Shown here: positions 957-45,805 of the stretch, piece after piece | Position numbering within the stretch: position 1 is the stretch's first letter | Layout: every line of letters starts with the position of its first letter | Origin: Clostridia bacterium | Lineage (GTDB): Bacteria; Bacillota; DAOUPZ01 | Length of the DNA: 64,000 nucleotides | Reading direction: 5' to 3' | Assembly (NCBI GenBank): GCA_030625885.1 | Contig: DAOUPZ010000002.1 | Location: 130,545-194,544, forward strand | Notes under the pieces: generated by a model | What the model was told of the DNA's origin: nothing | Seen by the model: the letters and a program-made list of their open reading frames with translations, nothing else | Databases searched by the model: none | Made by a program: the position numbers and the translations under genes

Positions 957-1178
957 AAAAAGCAGGTAGGAGTTAGCAGGTAGCAGGTAGGGAAAGATTA
1001 AAAGACGAGGAATGAGGAAAGAACGCATCCTATGGCTGCTGAACGAGGAACGAAAAAGATACAGGACAAGGAATGATAAAAACCGTTATTGCATGAAGGA
1101 AAAAGCAGAAAATATCAAAGTAAGACCTACCTACTACCTGCTACAAGTGACCGAAGGGAGCGTCCTACCTGCTGCTCG
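957..1178 (+). repeat. CAGGTAG inverted-repeat intergenic element, copy 1 (left arm + M1 + short M2 + right arm)
   Basis: AGCAGGTAGGAGTTAGCAGGTAGCAGGTAGGG at 961-993; ..GAGGAATGAGGAAAGAACGCATCCTATGGCTGCTGAACGAGGAACG..; right arm CCTACCTACTACCTGCTACAAGTGACCGAAGGGAGCGTCCTACCTGCT at about 1124-1175. Confidence 0.85.
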
Positions 1179-1243
1179 CTAGTTACCATTTTTGTAGAAA
1201 GCTGAGAACTGACAATTAATAACTAAACTAACGAGGTGCCAAG

Positions 1244-1978
1244 ATGATCAAATTATTTGCTGACTACCATACACATACGACATTTAGCCATGGAACGGGA
1301 AGCATTGAGGATAATGTAAAAGCAGCCCTTAAAAAGGGATTGAAAGAGGTCGCGATTTCAGATCATGGGCCTTCTTTTAAGCTTTTGGGCATTAAGCGTG
1401 CAGATATATTGCTAAAAATGAAGGAAGAAATTAGGTCTTGTCAAAACAAATACCCAGATATTAAAATATTATTGGGCTGTGAAGCAAATATTATCGGTAT
1501 GGATGGAGAAATTGATCTTCCTTTGGATATTATTAAAGAACTTGACATTTTATTGGTTGGACTACATAGAGGGGTCATACCTGCCAGCATGACCGATGCA
1601 TGGGATTACTACTTTTACTACGGGTTAAGGCGTTTTTCGAAAAAAATGGCTCAAAAAGCGCGGGAGAATAACACCCGGGCGCTTATTAATTGTGTCAACC
1701 GCTATGATGTGAAATTTATTACCCATCCGGGACATCGCTTTTCGGTCGATACAGGTGCTTTAGCCCATGCGTGTGGTGAGCAAGGAACCGCATTGGAGAT
1801 CAATGCTAGTCATGCTTATGATATGATACCGCTTTTGCAAGCGGCAATGACAGAATCCGTTTCTTTTGTAATAAGCAGTGATGCGCATCATCCTACCCGC
1901 GTAGGAGACTTACAACGTGGAATTGAGATTGCAGAGCAGGTTGGGATTGGACCGGAGCGGATTATTAATGCGTATTAG
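1244..1978 (+). CDS. PHP-domain phosphoesterase (histidinol-phosphatase family)
   Basis: N-terminal DYHTHTTFSHG metal-binding motif and later His/Asp motifs typical of the PHP fold; 244 aa. Confidence 0.7.
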   Translation: MIKLFADYHTHTTFSHGTGSIEDNVKAALKKGLKEVAISDHGPSFKLLGIKRADILLKMKEEIRSCQNKYPDIKILLGCEANIIGMDGEIDLPLDIIKELDILLVGLHRGVIPASMTDAWDYYFYYGLRRFSKKMAQKARENNTRALINCVNRYDVKFITHPGHRFSVDTGALAHACGEQGTALEINASHAYDMIPLLQAAMTESVSFVISSDAHHPTRVGDLQRGIEIAEQVGIGPERIINAY

Positions 1979-1989
1979 ATGAAAGGGGA

Positions 1990-2245
1990 AAGACCGCTCA
2001 CTGCGTTCGCTGAAAGACCGTTCCCTTTGGTCACTGAAAGTAAAAGATTAAGAGATGGCACAAGGCTTAAAGCTAAAAGCCGAAGGCTAAAGACTAAAAA
2101 GAAAAAGAACGTGGAATGGTAAAACCCTAATGCAAGAATGGGGACATTCCGTGAGGTACAAGGGGTGTGTCCCCGTTATTGCATGGAAGCGAAATGCAGG
2201 AAATGTCAAATTAAGACCTACCTGCTTTAGCGAAGCTGAAAGGGG
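1990..2245 (+). repeat. degenerate copy of the element (arms lack CAGGTAG but keep GACCGttCCCTTtGGTCAC core; GCTAAAAG module M5; full M2 hairpin module)
   Basis: CCGCTCACTGCGTTCGCTGAAAGACCGTTCCCTTTGGTCAC; CTAATGCAAGAATGGGGACATTCCGTGAGGTACAAGGGGTGTGTCCCCGTTATTGCATGG; truncated right arm TAAGACCTACCTGCTTTAGCGAAGCTG. Confidence 0.6.
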
Positions 2246-2261
2246 AAAGAGGAGAAAATTT

Positions 2262-3164
2262 ATGGATATGAATAATGATATGCGTTTTGTCATCATTACG
2301 GGTATGTCTGGAGCGGGGAAGACTCAGGTAATTCGGGCTTTAGAAGATTTAGGATTTTTTTGTATTGACAATCTTCCGCCAAATTTTATTCCTAAGTTTG
2401 CCGAATTATGTATAAAGTCTCAAACCTTAAACCGGGTTGGACTGGTGGTTGATATTCGTGGAGGCGATTTTTTTGATTTTATGTTGGATGCCCTAGGGGA
2501 TTTGGATCACATGGCACTTCCTTATGAAATCCTTTTTTTAGAAGCTTCCAATGACGTGCTGGTTAAACGGTATAAAGAGACACGGCGTCGTCATCCTTTA
2601 GCACATCAGGGGAGTATTTTAGAAGGCATACAGGAAGAACGAAAACGTTTGGAAGAATTACGAGGCAAAGCGGACAAAATAATTGATACCTCTCATCTTG
2701 CGCCCAAGGATTTCAAGAACCAACTCAAACGTATTTACGGACAGGAGAATCCATTGCAATCTTTGGGGATTACAGTCGTTTCATTTGGCTATAAATATGG
2801 CATTCCTTTGGATGCAGATATGGTATTTGATGTGCGTTTTTTGCCCAATCCATTCTACTTAGAATCCCTGAAAGATCTTACCGGAAATGATCAATCTGTG
2901 CGTGATTATGTACTGAAATGGCCGGAAACACATGAGTTTCTACAAAAGTTTTTTGCGCTCATTAACTTTTTGCTGCCTTACTATGTTCAAGAAGGTAAGA
3001 TGCATTTTACCATTGCCATTGGGTGTACGGGTGGGAATCATCGTTCTGTTACTGTTGCCCATGTATTGAATGATTTTTTAAAAAAGCATGGATATAATGT
3101 TCGACTGGAACATCGAGATATTTACCGTCGTTTGGCGGGAGGTAACAACCATGAGAAAAGATAA
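2262..3164 (+). CDS. rapZ: RNase adapter protein RapZ (YvcJ), P-loop NTPase
   Basis: MRFVIITGMSGAGKT Walker A; conserved rapZ-yvcK-whiA order; ORF-track start 2130 runs through the repeat element, start moved to ATG 2262 with GGAGA RBS. Confidence 0.85.
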   Translation: MDMNNDMRFVIITGMSGAGKTQVIRALEDLGFFCIDNLPPNFIPKFAELCIKSQTLNRVGLVVDIRGGDFFDFMLDALGDLDHMALPYEILFLEASNDVLVKRYKETRRRHPLAHQGSILEGIQEERKRLEELRGKADKIIDTSHLAPKDFKNQLKRIYGQENPLQSLGITVVSFGYKYGIPLDADMVFDVRFLPNPFYLESLKDLTGNDQSVRDYVLKWPETHEFLQKFFALINFLLPYYVQEGKMHFTIAIGCTGGNHRSVTVAHVLNDFLKKHGYNVRLEHRDIYRRLAGGNNHEKR

Positions 3165-44759: not shown

Positions 44760-45035
44760 ATGAATGGATTATTTACACCACAATTTGGGCAACTTTTACT
44801 TTTAGTCGTCTTGACGGTTGGTTTTTACTTTTTTGCAATTCGTCCTCAACAAAAACAACGGAAAGAACGCCAGGCATTGCTTAAAAATGTTAAACAAGGT
44901 GATAAAGTGGTTACTATTGGCGGGATTTGCGGTACGGTGATTGAAATAGTTGGCGAAGATCTTGTGAAGATCAGAGTGGATGAAAATACGGTTTTAAAAA
45001 TGACACGAAACGGAATTGGGCAAGTACAAGGGTAA
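44760..45035 (+). CDS. yajC: preprotein translocase subunit YajC
   Basis: single TM then RPQQKQRKERQALLKNVKQGDKVVTIGGI; conserved queA-tgt-yajC order. Confidence 0.8.
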   Translation: MNGLFTPQFGQLLLLVVLTVGFYFFAIRPQQKQRKERQALLKNVKQGDKVVTIGGICGTVIEIVGEDLVKIRVDENTVLKMTRNGIGQVQG

Positions 45036-45039
45036 TCGG

Positions 45040-45245
45040 AAACGATTGCTCTTTTTTTTGGTAGAAGGAAAAAAGATAAAGGATAAAAAGAGGTAGAAGG
45101 TAGAAGGATAAAGATTAAAGATAAAAGAGGTGGAAGGATAAAAGATTAAAGATAAAGAGACGTAGAAGGTGGAAGGATAAAGATAAAAGAGGTAGAAGGT
45201 GGAAGGACAAAAGATAATAGATTAAAGATTCGTTGAAGGGAAAAG
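45040..45245 (+). repeat. purine-rich tandem array (about 5 units of GGTAGAAGGTGGAAGGATAAAGAT[TAAAGAT]AAAAGAG) upstream of the second four-helix-bundle gene
   Basis: read directly; shares GGTAG..AAAGATTAAAGA core with the CAGGTAG left arms. Confidence 0.8.
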
Positions 45246-45324
45246 ATAAATATAAAATATGTTAAAAATGGAAGGAAAAGAAAAATGTTAAGCGAATTAA
45301 TTTCTAGAATTATATAATAGGTGG

Positions 45325-45699
45325 GTGATATTTATGATAGAGGTTAATTCGTTTGAGAGATTGGAAGTATGGCAATTTGCATATAAATTTTCACTTGAGA
45401 TTTACAGGTTAGTAAGTAATTTTCCCAATAAAGAGAAGTATGGGCTGGTAGACCAATTATGCAGAGCGGCTGTTTCTGTTCCTGTAAATATTGCTGAAGG
45501 CAGTGGCAGAGGTTCGATAAAGGATTTTCAAAGATTTTTATATATTGCCAGAGGATCTTTAGAAGAAACAAAGAGTCATTTATTAATAGCTAAAGGTTTA
45601 GGTTATGTGCAAGAAAAAGAATTCGAAACAATAATGGCTTTGGCCCAAAGAATAGGCAAAATGCTTAACGGACTAATAAAAAGTAACAGCAAAAAATAA
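45325..45699 (+). CDS. four-helix-bundle protein (23S rRNA intervening-sequence protein / Avd-like family), second copy
   Basis: LEVWQFAYKFSLEIYRL...[13 protein letters not shown]; about 50% identical to 42808-43185; flanked by inverted purine-rich/pyrimidine-rich repeat arrays. Confidence 0.7.
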   Translation: MIFMIEVNSFERLEVWQFAYKFSLEIYRLVSNFPNKEKYGLVDQLCRAAVSVPVNIAEGSGRGSIKDFQRFLYIARGSLEETKSHLLIAKGLGYVQEKEFETIMALAQRIGKMLNGLIKSNSKK

Positions 45700-45702
45700 C
45701 CT

Positions 45703-45805
45703 TGAATTATATCTTTAATCCTTCACCTTCCACCTTCAACGTCTTTTAATCCTTAAATCCCTTATCTTTTACCTTCTACCTTGAACCTTCCACCTTCAAC
45801 CATCA
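45703..45805 (+). repeat. pyrimidine-rich array that is the inverted counterpart of 45040-45245 (CCTTCCACCTTC / CTTTTACCTTCTACC units)
   Basis: reverse complement reads GGTTGAAGGTGGAAGGTTCAAGGTAGAAGGTAAAAGATAAGGGATTTAAGGATTAAAAGACGTTGAAGGTGGAAGG. Confidence 0.8.

Follow-up and report, generated by a model that had tools for sequence, protein, structure and literature searches.

Heptamer-armed inverted repeats in operon spacers of a Clostridia genome share arms and sites with S23p-family genes

A housekeeping region of an uncultured Clostridia genome carries repeated, inverted DNA in almost all of its gene spacers, and the question raised by this locus is what kind of element has come to occupy so many gene boundaries. 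The stretch analysed here, called the window, consists of 64,000 nucleotides from Clostridia bacterium (GenBank assembly GCA_030625885.1, contig DAOUPZ010000002.1, positions 130,545 to 194,544 of the forward strand), and all coordinates below are those of the window. A preliminary description of the same DNA had reported a modular inverted-repeat family with terminal arms of several types and internal modules numbered M1 to M6. We find that the arms are inverted arrays of tandem 7-bp units, and that the same arms and sites are used by genes of the S23p (four-helix-bundle) family.

Paired heptamer arrays at the ends of genes

The family stands out clearly from chance. The 16-mer GCAGGTAGCAGGTAGG has 27 matches in the window with at most one mismatch and none in 100 shuffles, and the 8-mer GCAGGTAG occurs in 46 forward and 41 reverse copies where about 1.0 and 0.3, respectively, are expected. 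In every spacer, all forward copies of the 8-mer precede the reverse ones, such that a left arm is followed by a right arm, and these copies occupy 16–18 spacers between 957 and 44,666. Two longer arm types, alpha (at up to three mismatches) and beta, have seven copies each, and a GCAGCC..GGCTGC hairpin has ten; about zero are expected in each case. On self-comparison, nearly all spacers between 957 and 45,215 contain repeated DNA, and beyond 46 kb there is little except protein-coding repeats. The first proposal of a dispersed, modular inverted-repeat family in the spacers between genes is supported. Full copies with GCAGGTAG arms number 15, with 2–3 partial ones and about eight further hairpins whose arms are built from different heptamers, to give about 25 hairpins in 45 kb. 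Thus, the earlier figure of at least 22 copies holds if the other heptamer-arm families are counted, but not for GCAGGTAG arms by themselves. Rfam searches of the window at gathering scores return two T-boxes, an L20 leader and a Moco (molybdenum cofactor) riboswitch with no match to the elements, and a search at E ≤ 1 over 30–46 kb returns 0 matches, in keeping with the earlier failure to recognise a named repeat family.

The arms are not the unique terminal repeats for which they had been taken. TRF (a tandem-repeat search) assigns a period of 7 to about 45 of 96 arrays in the window, and autocorrelation at lag 7 is 0.371 in the intergenic DNA of 1–46 kb against a background of roughly 0.29, with coding DNA showing period 3 only. 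These two measures reveal tandem heptamer arrays, with (TAGCAGG)n forming the left arm and (CCTGCTA)n the right one; the string AGCAGGT AGCAGGT AGG is itself (TAGCAGG)n. What had been called the short arm comprises four heptamer units, the second one degenerate, and unit number differs between copies. Beta is a 22-nt insert (CACGCTCGCACTGCTCGCTGTA) between heptamer units and sits within (TAGCAGG)n, (GGCAAGT)n and GAAAGAC arrays in the window. Alpha (TACAAGTGACCGAAGGGAGCGTC) is a diverged reverse complement of beta, with intermediate variants at 17803 and 20714, and beta is therefore confined to left arms (7 of 7) and alpha to right arms (7 of 7), contrary to the proposal that any arm type can lie on either side. 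Alpha pairs with beta save for a conserved internal loop of about 6 × 6 nt.

Within the loops enclosed by these arms lie arrays of other heptamers, small GC hairpins and also complete hairpins whose arms use different heptamers. Modules M2, M3 and M4 are genuine dispersed modules (M3 has a mean column identity of 70% in alignment, and M4 copies are about 85–95% alike by eye), but M1, M4 and M6 are better read as other heptamer families that form hairpins of their own. Specifically, in M1 a GCAGCCTATGGCTGC hairpin is nested within a (GAGGAAC)n array, M4 forms a hairpin on (TTGACAA)n arms of its own and M6 consists of (CATAATT)n heptamers. Hairpins with their own inverted heptamer arms also stand separately from the GCAGGTAG elements (marked in Table 1; the one in the ruvA–ruvB spacer spans 37808–37925). 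The overall architecture is one of nested heptamer-armed hairpins plus small inserts.

Folding bears out the prediction that the arms pair into a long stem. In all 15 full GCAGGTAG copies, the minimum-free-energy structure pairs the left arm with the right arm, as it does in a further element (45060–45805) that encloses a gene called 4HB-b. The outer stems measure 17–45 bp, and z-scores against dinucleotide shuffles range from −4 to −13.

These elements lie close to gene ends, although over wider distances than first stated. Left arms start −9 to +50 nt from the upstream stop codon, with 8 of the 11 copies directly after a co-oriented gene starting at most 11 nt away, and 8–93 nt separate the end of the right arm from the following start codon. 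For ruvA, ruvB and queH, the arm itself provides the stop, a TAG of its first heptamer units (37769–37791, 38942–38949 and 39817–39824). After mutS2, tyrS and the rlmB-like gene, the repeats follow the stop codon and are in turn followed by a terminator-type hairpin. The first two of these terminators were listed by a scan; the third, a hairpin and T-run at about 12880–12905 between the element and the pheS T-box promoter (12908), was read by eye and has no listing in the scan. A T-run follows the right arm at 17373 only. This arrangement places the elements inside transcription units rather than at their termini, and the same single T-run led us to reject termination as a general role.

Association with S23p-family genes

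Two elements, at 42756–43224 and 45060–45805, carry an S23p (PF05635) open reading frame (ORF) in their loop, and the other 16 or so do not. The preliminary description overlooked these genes, along with the 7-bp periodicity and the nesting. The gene in the first element, 4HB-a, has 125 codons and belongs to the 23S_rRNA_IVP/S23p family (PF05635, 142.9 bits; TIGR02436; PDB 2GSC, which is XCC0516, E = 4.5e-21). Its element shares (TAGCAGG)n arms with the ORF-less copies, such that the same arms flank either small modules or an S23p gene.

This association extends far beyond the window. In a survey of the gene family, 29 homologues were aligned and 80 metagenomic loci (L100–L179) were collected, of which 72 were testable, some being near-duplicates of one another. 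Each locus was scored by the best inverted repeat joining the two 250-nt flanks of the gene, and controls were drawn from the same loci with the same geometry. Scores of at least 14 were obtained for 50 of the 72 loci versus 3 of 189 controls, and scores of at least 18 for 23 loci versus no control (medians 15.5 and 9). Autocorrelation in the two flanks of these genes is 0.375 and 0.405 at lag 7 and 0.34 and 0.385 at lag 14, compared with 0.26 in the gene body. The metagenomic arms represent many heptamer families, commonly of the form T[A/G]GNNNN or TAANNNN, and the units found in the window conform to these patterns. The upstream neighbour is co-oriented at 42 of 43 loci, and the arm starts −16 to +21 nt from its stop codon in 32 of these 42. 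Thus, a gene within inverted heptamer arrays is the general unit in this metagenomic sample, and it sits at the stop codons of co-oriented genes. ORF-less hairpins that share the heptamer of the local four-helix-bundle arms exist in other loci as well, for example at 1699–1872 of L179, where the first unit of one ORF-less hairpin supplies the stop codon of the upstream gene.

In the searchable literature, we found no account of inverted heptamer arrays at stop codons as a general flank of S23p-family genes. S23p-type genes found between cmr3 and cmr2 have been read as a functional link to CRISPR (PMC3936711), but this placement of 23S_rRNA_IVP genes may reflect the same kind of insertion behaviour.

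The tie to one gene family also bears on whether these arrays are elements at all. They could be heptanucleotide microsatellites that arose by polymerase slippage and came to lie in inverted pairs by chance, with no element identity. Among long simple-sequence repeats, heptamers are described as the most abundant in many bacteria, with slippage as the proposed source (Mrazek 2007, as cited in PMC4692102 and PMC4679880); variation in unit number among copies agrees with this proposal. We nevertheless consider this explanation very improbable. It is already largely refuted by the strict pairing of inverted arrays, which it leaves unexplained, and it accounts neither for the conserved modules (alpha, beta and M2–M4) at 7–10 sites nor for the difference between S23p loci and controls.

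Heptamer repeats are said to have been described in cyanobacteria by Mazel et al. in 1990, and to have been known for decades. Small dispersed repeats (SDR) nested in tandem heptamers have reportedly been found in Nostoc by Elhai et al. in 2008. Geobacter genomes hold heptamer arrays as multicopy families, Correia elements are RNase III substrates, and the units of the cyanobacterial heptamer repeats STRR1–3 are CCCCAGT, TTGGTCA and CAACAGT. We know of no accepted function or origin either for heptamer repeats or for the intervening sequences (IVS) of 23S rRNA.

The family is not without precedent, as had been supposed. In filamentous cyanobacteria, STRR heptamers form hairpins between co-transcribed genes such as hupS and hupL, for which transcript stabilisation or translational coupling was proposed (PMC2670836). 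Intergenic heptamer arrays (GGGAATC, GGGGAYT) lie just downstream of ORFs in Xanthomonas and Nostoc, at about 28 nt in Xanthomonas (PMC4692102), and TAACTGA arrays lie directly before start codons in Beggiatoaceae (PMC4679880). Intervening sequences in 23S rRNA, some with an S23p gene, were identified more than 25 years ago; that of Coxiella has a stem of 28-bp terminal inverted repeats, an S23p ORF and tandem heptamers before this ORF, is excised by RNase III and was described as a selfish element (PMC4990558).

Comparison with these systems reveals both likenesses and differences. As with STRR, the window has tandem 7-bp units in intergenic DNA, often within operons near the 3′ end of the upstream gene, and inverted arrays able to fold. 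In contrast to STRR, its host belongs to the Clostridia, its density of hairpins is far higher, it has conserved non-repetitive modules and its polarity is strict. No arrays of CCCCAGT, TTGGTCA, CAACAGT, TAACTGA or GGGGATT are present in the window. The window inserts of 15–23 nt (beta, alpha and the GCAGCC..GGCTGC hairpin) lie inside more than one heptamer array family, with mutual nesting, and in this they resemble the SDR of Nostoc by the reported description of the latter as repeats of about 20–27 nt embedded in heptamers, but the window inserts form complementary pairs across two arms. With the 23S IVS, the elements have in common a terminal inverted-repeat stem, an S23p ORF in the loop and tandem heptamers. 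Unlike IVS, for which Coxiella, Leptospira and Xanthomonas are named as hosts, they lie between protein-coding genes in mRNA operons rather than in rRNA helix 25 or 45 (Rfam finds no rRNA in the window), most lack an ORF and their heptamer arms are long.

Dispersed, co-transcribed intergenic inverted repeats are also typical of REP/BIME, BOX, ERIC and Correia elements, and BOX elements share the modular construction. However, the window elements show no sequence or Rfam similarity to these families, have arms made of tandem arrays, are associated with four-helix-bundle genes and lack the TA target-site duplication of Correia elements. The arrays of Xanthomonas, Nostoc, Beggiatoaceae and Geobacter are likewise heptamers strongly enriched in intergenic DNA, but most are single direct arrays that have been read as G-quadruplexes or regulator sites, whereas the window has inverted pairs with loop modules. 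Structurally, then, the window family has the features of both STRR hairpins and IVS, and it differs from them in host, in heptamer unit and in its location outside rRNA.

We favour, with moderate confidence, the reading that these elements are cargo-less counterparts of IVS-like, heptamer-armed S23p units, akin to STRR, which are co-transcribed, probably cut by RNase III and primarily selfish or neutral. If this model is correct, the elements would be transcribed with their operon and the stems would form near-perfect RNA duplexes of 17–45 bp. RNase III would cut these duplexes and split the polycistronic RNA at each spacer. Such processing of the arm stems may reasonably be expected from the established properties of RNase III and from its cleavage of 23S IVS, which share this architecture (PMC4990558). 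The TAG-rich left arms would stop translation in two or three frames, which would keep ribosomes off the stem and make insertion at gene ends harmless. Turnover would proceed by insertion, deletion and replacement, with processing as a consequence rather than a demonstrated purpose. Spread might occur by recombination between heptamer arrays or through a role of the four-helix-bundle protein, although both routes are speculative.

Turnover at stable sites and the weighing of explanations

The host is a Firmicute of a poorly sampled, deep-branching Clostridia lineage. It carries sporulation genes as well as T-box and L20 leaders, and by PheT it falls nearest to Clostridia, with one relative at 90% identity and the next at no more than about 50% (Gracilibacteraceae, Petroclostridium and Thermosediminibacterales). 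The close relative is represented by Logan contigs of SRR14270296 (L096), whose pheT DNA is 87% identical overall and 74% identical at third codon positions.

Comparison of the two genomes, which had been suggested as a test of the family, gives a mixed picture in which arms are kept at orthologous sites, but arm-family swaps, module insertions or deletions and one presence/absence difference also occur. The same arms flank pheT on both sides in the relative and are about 90% identical. Upstream of tyrS, the relative has the same alpha arm and an extra M2 module. A beta-like insert is found in (ACTTACC)n arrays of the relative. At queA–tgt, ruvC–ruvA and upstream of the PHP gene, it carries (TAAGTGG)n/(CCACTTA)n arms at the same positions. 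The arms at tgt are equal in length and, by eye, about 50% identical; left and right arms have changed in concert, and complementarity is therefore kept while the unit differs. The queA gene ends in TAGGTAAGTGG in both genomes, and the arrays diverge after this point. The presence/absence difference is a (TAGCAGG)n arm that follows the PHP gene in the relative and is lacking in the window. In a third organism (SRR32481347), tgt is immediately followed by a four-helix-bundle gene; in the window, an ORF-less element and then yajC stand at this place. Since relatives share sites and differ in modules and arms, the sites are stable and their contents turn over. The orthologous four-helix-bundle proteins are only 67% identical, compared with 90% for PheT and with other proteins that fall into the same 90% clusters, which suggests that this cassette was replaced, or that the protein and its arms co-evolved rapidly.

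Short-read Logan assemblies of the same organism (SRR14270297) and of the relative break at the arms on both sides of single genes, as fits a high copy number genome-wide. Such breaks, the presence/absence difference, the terminal inverted arms, the variable interior and the high local density would also be expected if the elements were classical MITEs (miniature inverted-repeat transposable elements), moved as DNA by a transposase encoded elsewhere, with the RNA stem incidental. We judge this to be quite unlikely. No target-site duplications are seen at 15 copies: the direct repeat is 0–1 nt in 12 of them, and the flanks of the remaining three have no more in common than an A-run of 4 nt, the 3 nt AAC or one base. 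By this measure the elements are not MITEs. In addition, the arms are tandem arrays whose unit number varies, not fixed termini, one and the same site carries different heptamer families in relatives and polarity with respect to genes is strict. No mobility enzyme, transposase or RAYT-like gene is found among the genes in the 64 kb.

Conservation of sites could instead point to selection by the host. In this case, the elements would be cis-acting RNAs that serve as 3′ stabilisers (as REP does in E. coli), set differential decay or insulate translation through stops in all frames. The pheT-flanking arms are more alike between the relatives than are third codon positions, arm complementarity is kept while the heptamer changes, and stabilisation or coupling was proposed for STRR hairpins (PMC2670836). 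Also consistent with host selection is the fact that in 14 of 15 copies the left arm closes two or three frames, within about 35 nt, whereas right arms close none or one; among metagenomic left arms, all three frames are closed in 24 of 50 versus 17% of shuffles. Nevertheless, modules vary freely at orthologous sites and one element is absent outright from one of the two genomes. The sense strand shows no wobble signature (below), the arms carry a gene of a family without known host function, the Coxiella IVS with such a gene is described as selfish (PMC4990558), and the elements are absent from 46–64 kb. We therefore see host selection as a less likely basis for the family, and rank a selfish or neutral origin above it because modules differ freely at orthologous sites and the wobble test is negative.

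Several observations weigh against our preferred reading of co-transcribed, IVS-like elements. The outer stems in the window contain 443 Watson–Crick and 16 G·U pairs among 459, and both strands fold about equally well, such that comparison of fold energies is not decisive and the symmetry could be a property of the DNA. Among 50 arm pairs, the wobble test counts 58 sense-compatible (G·U) and 80 antisense-compatible (C·A-type) mismatches, along with 158 transversions. There is thus no sign of selection specific to the sense RNA strand, and the RNA-level role advanced in the preliminary description gains no support from this test. In operons that are tightly packed, closeness to a stop codon is in part trivial. 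The claim that orientation follows transcription holds in so far as the minus-strand copy at 20440–20756 is reversed with its genes, aligning in reverse complement with the plus-strand copies and placing its left arm at the stop of the upstream gene, but orientation is confounded with replication direction (leading strand), from which this one copy alone discriminates. The lack of a mobility enzyme in the 64 kb and of target-site duplications also counts against this reading. A tblastn search found no remnants of four-helix-bundle genes inside ORF-less copies; ancestry from ORF-carrying copies is therefore not established, and only arms and sites are held in common. Finally, the anatomy, the arm pairing, the placement, the four-helix-bundle link and the turnover are observed, and transcription through the elements, cleavage by RNase III and the mode of spread are steps that we infer.

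The DNA-level symmetry invites another explanation, in which the arrays act as DNA or as protein-binding sites, with the four-helix-bundle pentamer, a nucleoid protein or a single-strand-binding protein as partner and with effects on cruciforms, replication or recombination. Avd, a relative of the four-helix-bundle protein, is an RNA-associated cofactor. Besides the near-perfect Watson–Crick stems and the equal folding of both strands, this explanation could draw on the joint change of arms and four-helix-bundle protein between relatives, which departs from the behaviour of housekeeping proteins. The methods of one study mention a search for 'Avd-binding stem-loops' in the RNAs of diversity-generating retroelements (bioRxiv 10.1101/2023.10.23.563531). 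However, the one copy that discriminates has the polarity of transcription, the elements are placed between stop codons and terminators, and binding by the protein is putative. We assign this explanation a low probability.

A broader hypothesis would extend the reading of IVS-like units to other lineages, and we offer it tentatively, as one that is possible but that we hold with less confidence than the reading for the window. Heptamer-armed hairpins and S23p/Avd-like genes might constitute one widespread IVS-like class that includes cyanobacterial STRRs and the arrays of Xanthomonas, Geobacter and Bacteroidetes. Its members would settle at stop codons within operons, with the first heptamer often supplying the stop; ORF-less copies would be non-autonomous relatives, and the four-helix-bundle pentamer would recognise its own heptamer arms, in RNA or DNA, and so maintain or spread the element. 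Such a class would give a function to the S23p family, whose role is unknown, and would explain the dominance of heptamers among long simple-sequence repeats of bacteria. A single window joins heptamer repeats and S23p genes in a lineage far from cyanobacteria, and two vague puzzles, the heptamer repeats and the S23p IVS, are thereby made testable. The four-helix-bundle result may be a more valuable lead than the repeat family itself.

Searches beyond the relatives gave further hints of such arrays. A metagenome scan with the alpha arm returned 0 matches. The genome-contig matches listed for the 16-mer arm are mostly chance single matches, and among them there is a hint that Chloroflexi, WOR-3 and a Syntrophomonadaceae bin contain (GCAGGTA)n arrays and heptamer hairpins. 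Intergenic (CCTACCTGCTA)-type arrays occur in other phyla, in L044, L050, L066 and L076 (a Syntrophomonadaceae bin from soda-lake sediment) and in L048 (Caldilinea), L003, L024 and L047. Some of them pair with a different heptamer across a small GC hairpin and others are long tandem runs. Spacers rich in heptamers thus extend beyond this lineage and the cyanobacteria.

Coordinates and neighbouring features

The elements are listed in Table 1. Their neighbours are housekeeping genes: dprA, rapZ, yvcK, whiA, thrS, infC, rplT, trkHA, pheST, mutS2, a PBP1A-family gene, tyrS, nadE, yebC, ruvCAB, queH, spoIID, queA, tgt and yajC.

Table 1 Heptamer-armed elements and hairpins in the window
Element	Position	Strand	Features
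dprA–PHP gene element	961–1173	+	(TAGCAGG)n left arm, right arm with alpha insert; 28-bp outer stem, z −5.7; loop with (AAAGATT)n, (GAGGAAY)n and GCATCCTATGGCTGC hairpin
(GAGGAAC-type)-armed hairpin (separate)	11548–11735	+	nested GCAGCCTATGGCTGC hairpin; right arm within rlmB-like ORF call
Element directly 3′ of rlmB-like stop	12554–12877	+	30-bp stem, z −10.9
pheS–pheT intercistronic element	14449–14604	+	beta left arm pairs with alpha right arm, 38 pairs
Post-pheT element	17085–17373	+	two M2 (GGGGACA..TGTCCCC) hairpins in loop
Element with nested M4 hairpin	17578–17841	+	M4 hairpin with its own (TTGACAA)n arms
(CATAATT)n/(AATTATG)n hairpin (separate)	18325–18560	+	M6 of the preliminary description
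Copy after ACT-domain gene stop	20440–20756	−	beta left arm 20714–20752; M4 hairpin; no right arm
Half element after mutS2	27570–27672	+	in order, GCAGCC hairpin, (TAGCAGG)2, (AAAGATT), (GAGGAAY)n, second GCAGCC hairpin; then terminator 27673–27714
Minimal 134-nt element upstream of tyrS	30154–30287	+	34 Watson–Crick pairs, z −7.9
Post-tyrS ACAGC..GCTGT hairpin and array	31584–31665	+	hairpin, then (GGCAAGT)n with beta-like insert; before terminator 31685–31720
Element upstream of yunB	31829–32052	+	beta left arm, M3 loop, alpha right arm
(GAGGAAC)n/(GTTCCTC)n hairpin before nadE (separate)	32984–33145	+	
nadE–yebC element	33980–34239	+	nested M4 hairpin; z −13
(GTTCTCR)n/(YGAGAAC)n hairpin (separate)	35096–35237	.	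between convergent yebC and bofC-like genes; z −5.8 and −8.1
Element upstream of ruvC	36077–36298	+	pure (TAGCAGG)n arms, M3 loop
ruvC–ruvA element	36888–37139	+	folding
ruvA–ruvB spacer	37769–37940	+	(AGCAGGC)n array, then (GAGGAAC)n/(GTTCCTC)n hairpin (separate)
ruvB–queH element	38942–39224	+	ruvB stop is TAG of first arm unit
queH–spoIID element	39816–39954	+	queH stop within arm
spoIID–queA element	41444–41691	+	M3 loop
queA–tgt element	42756–43224	+	(TAGCAGG)n arms enclosing 4HB-a (ORF 42808–43185)
tgt–yajC element	44383–44666	+	ORF-less
4HB-b element	45060–45805	+	ORF 45334–45699; inverted (T[A/G]GAAGG)n and (CCTTC[C/T]A)n arrays

The post-tyrS array is conserved in the relative. The tyrS gene lacks the T-box leader that thrS and pheS have, and the minimal hairpin sits 75 nt before its start codon instead. 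A small hairpin, GCAGCGAAGCTGC, lies directly 3′ of the right arm at two sites (14606–14620 and 32055–32067); it is absent from the orthologous pheS–pheT spacer of the relative (L096) and looks like a recent small insertion or deletion.

The elements have practical consequences, since they break short-read assemblies at nearly every gene boundary and cause mis-called starts. Mechanical ORF starts run into arms for nadE (33104–33165), the rlmB-like gene (11636–11735) and the ACT_8 gene at 17759–18304 (17759–17841). The annotated nadE start is too far upstream because its mechanical ORF extends into the right arm, and the true starts of all three genes must be downstream of the right arm and a ribosome-binding site.

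Elements with GCAGGTAG arms end abruptly after 45.8 kb, and none is present in the remaining 46–64 kb of the window. Large repeat or surface-type proteins are encoded there, and heptamer arrays are few and weak (56741 and 60556). The G+C content beyond 46 kb is 0.33–0.42 per 2-kb window, with about 0.36 at 46–50 kb, versus roughly 0.42 upstream. Within the element-rich region, an AT-rich 952-bp spacer between divergent genes (21039–21990; G+C about 0.31) has no heptamer element, but holds a terminator-like hairpin at 21820–21861 and possibly a small unannotated ORF.

The gene for an S41 C-terminal protease (50567–51949) has its 3′ end and the first bases after its stop codon repeated further on, in blocks of 140 and 374 bp (51401–51966 and 56151–56716). 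The second copy forms the 3′ end of ORF 55227–56699 and looks like a shared C-terminal domain or a recent duplication. Between the two, a Moco/tungsten riboswitch (52077–52254, 73.5 bits) and a terminator-like hairpin lie upstream of a gene for a 966-amino-acid repeat protein (52293–55193). This protein is encoded by 2.9 copies of a 330-bp unit and contains a 'cyanobacterial long protein repeat' domain, which makes it an unusual gene to find under a Moco riboswitch.

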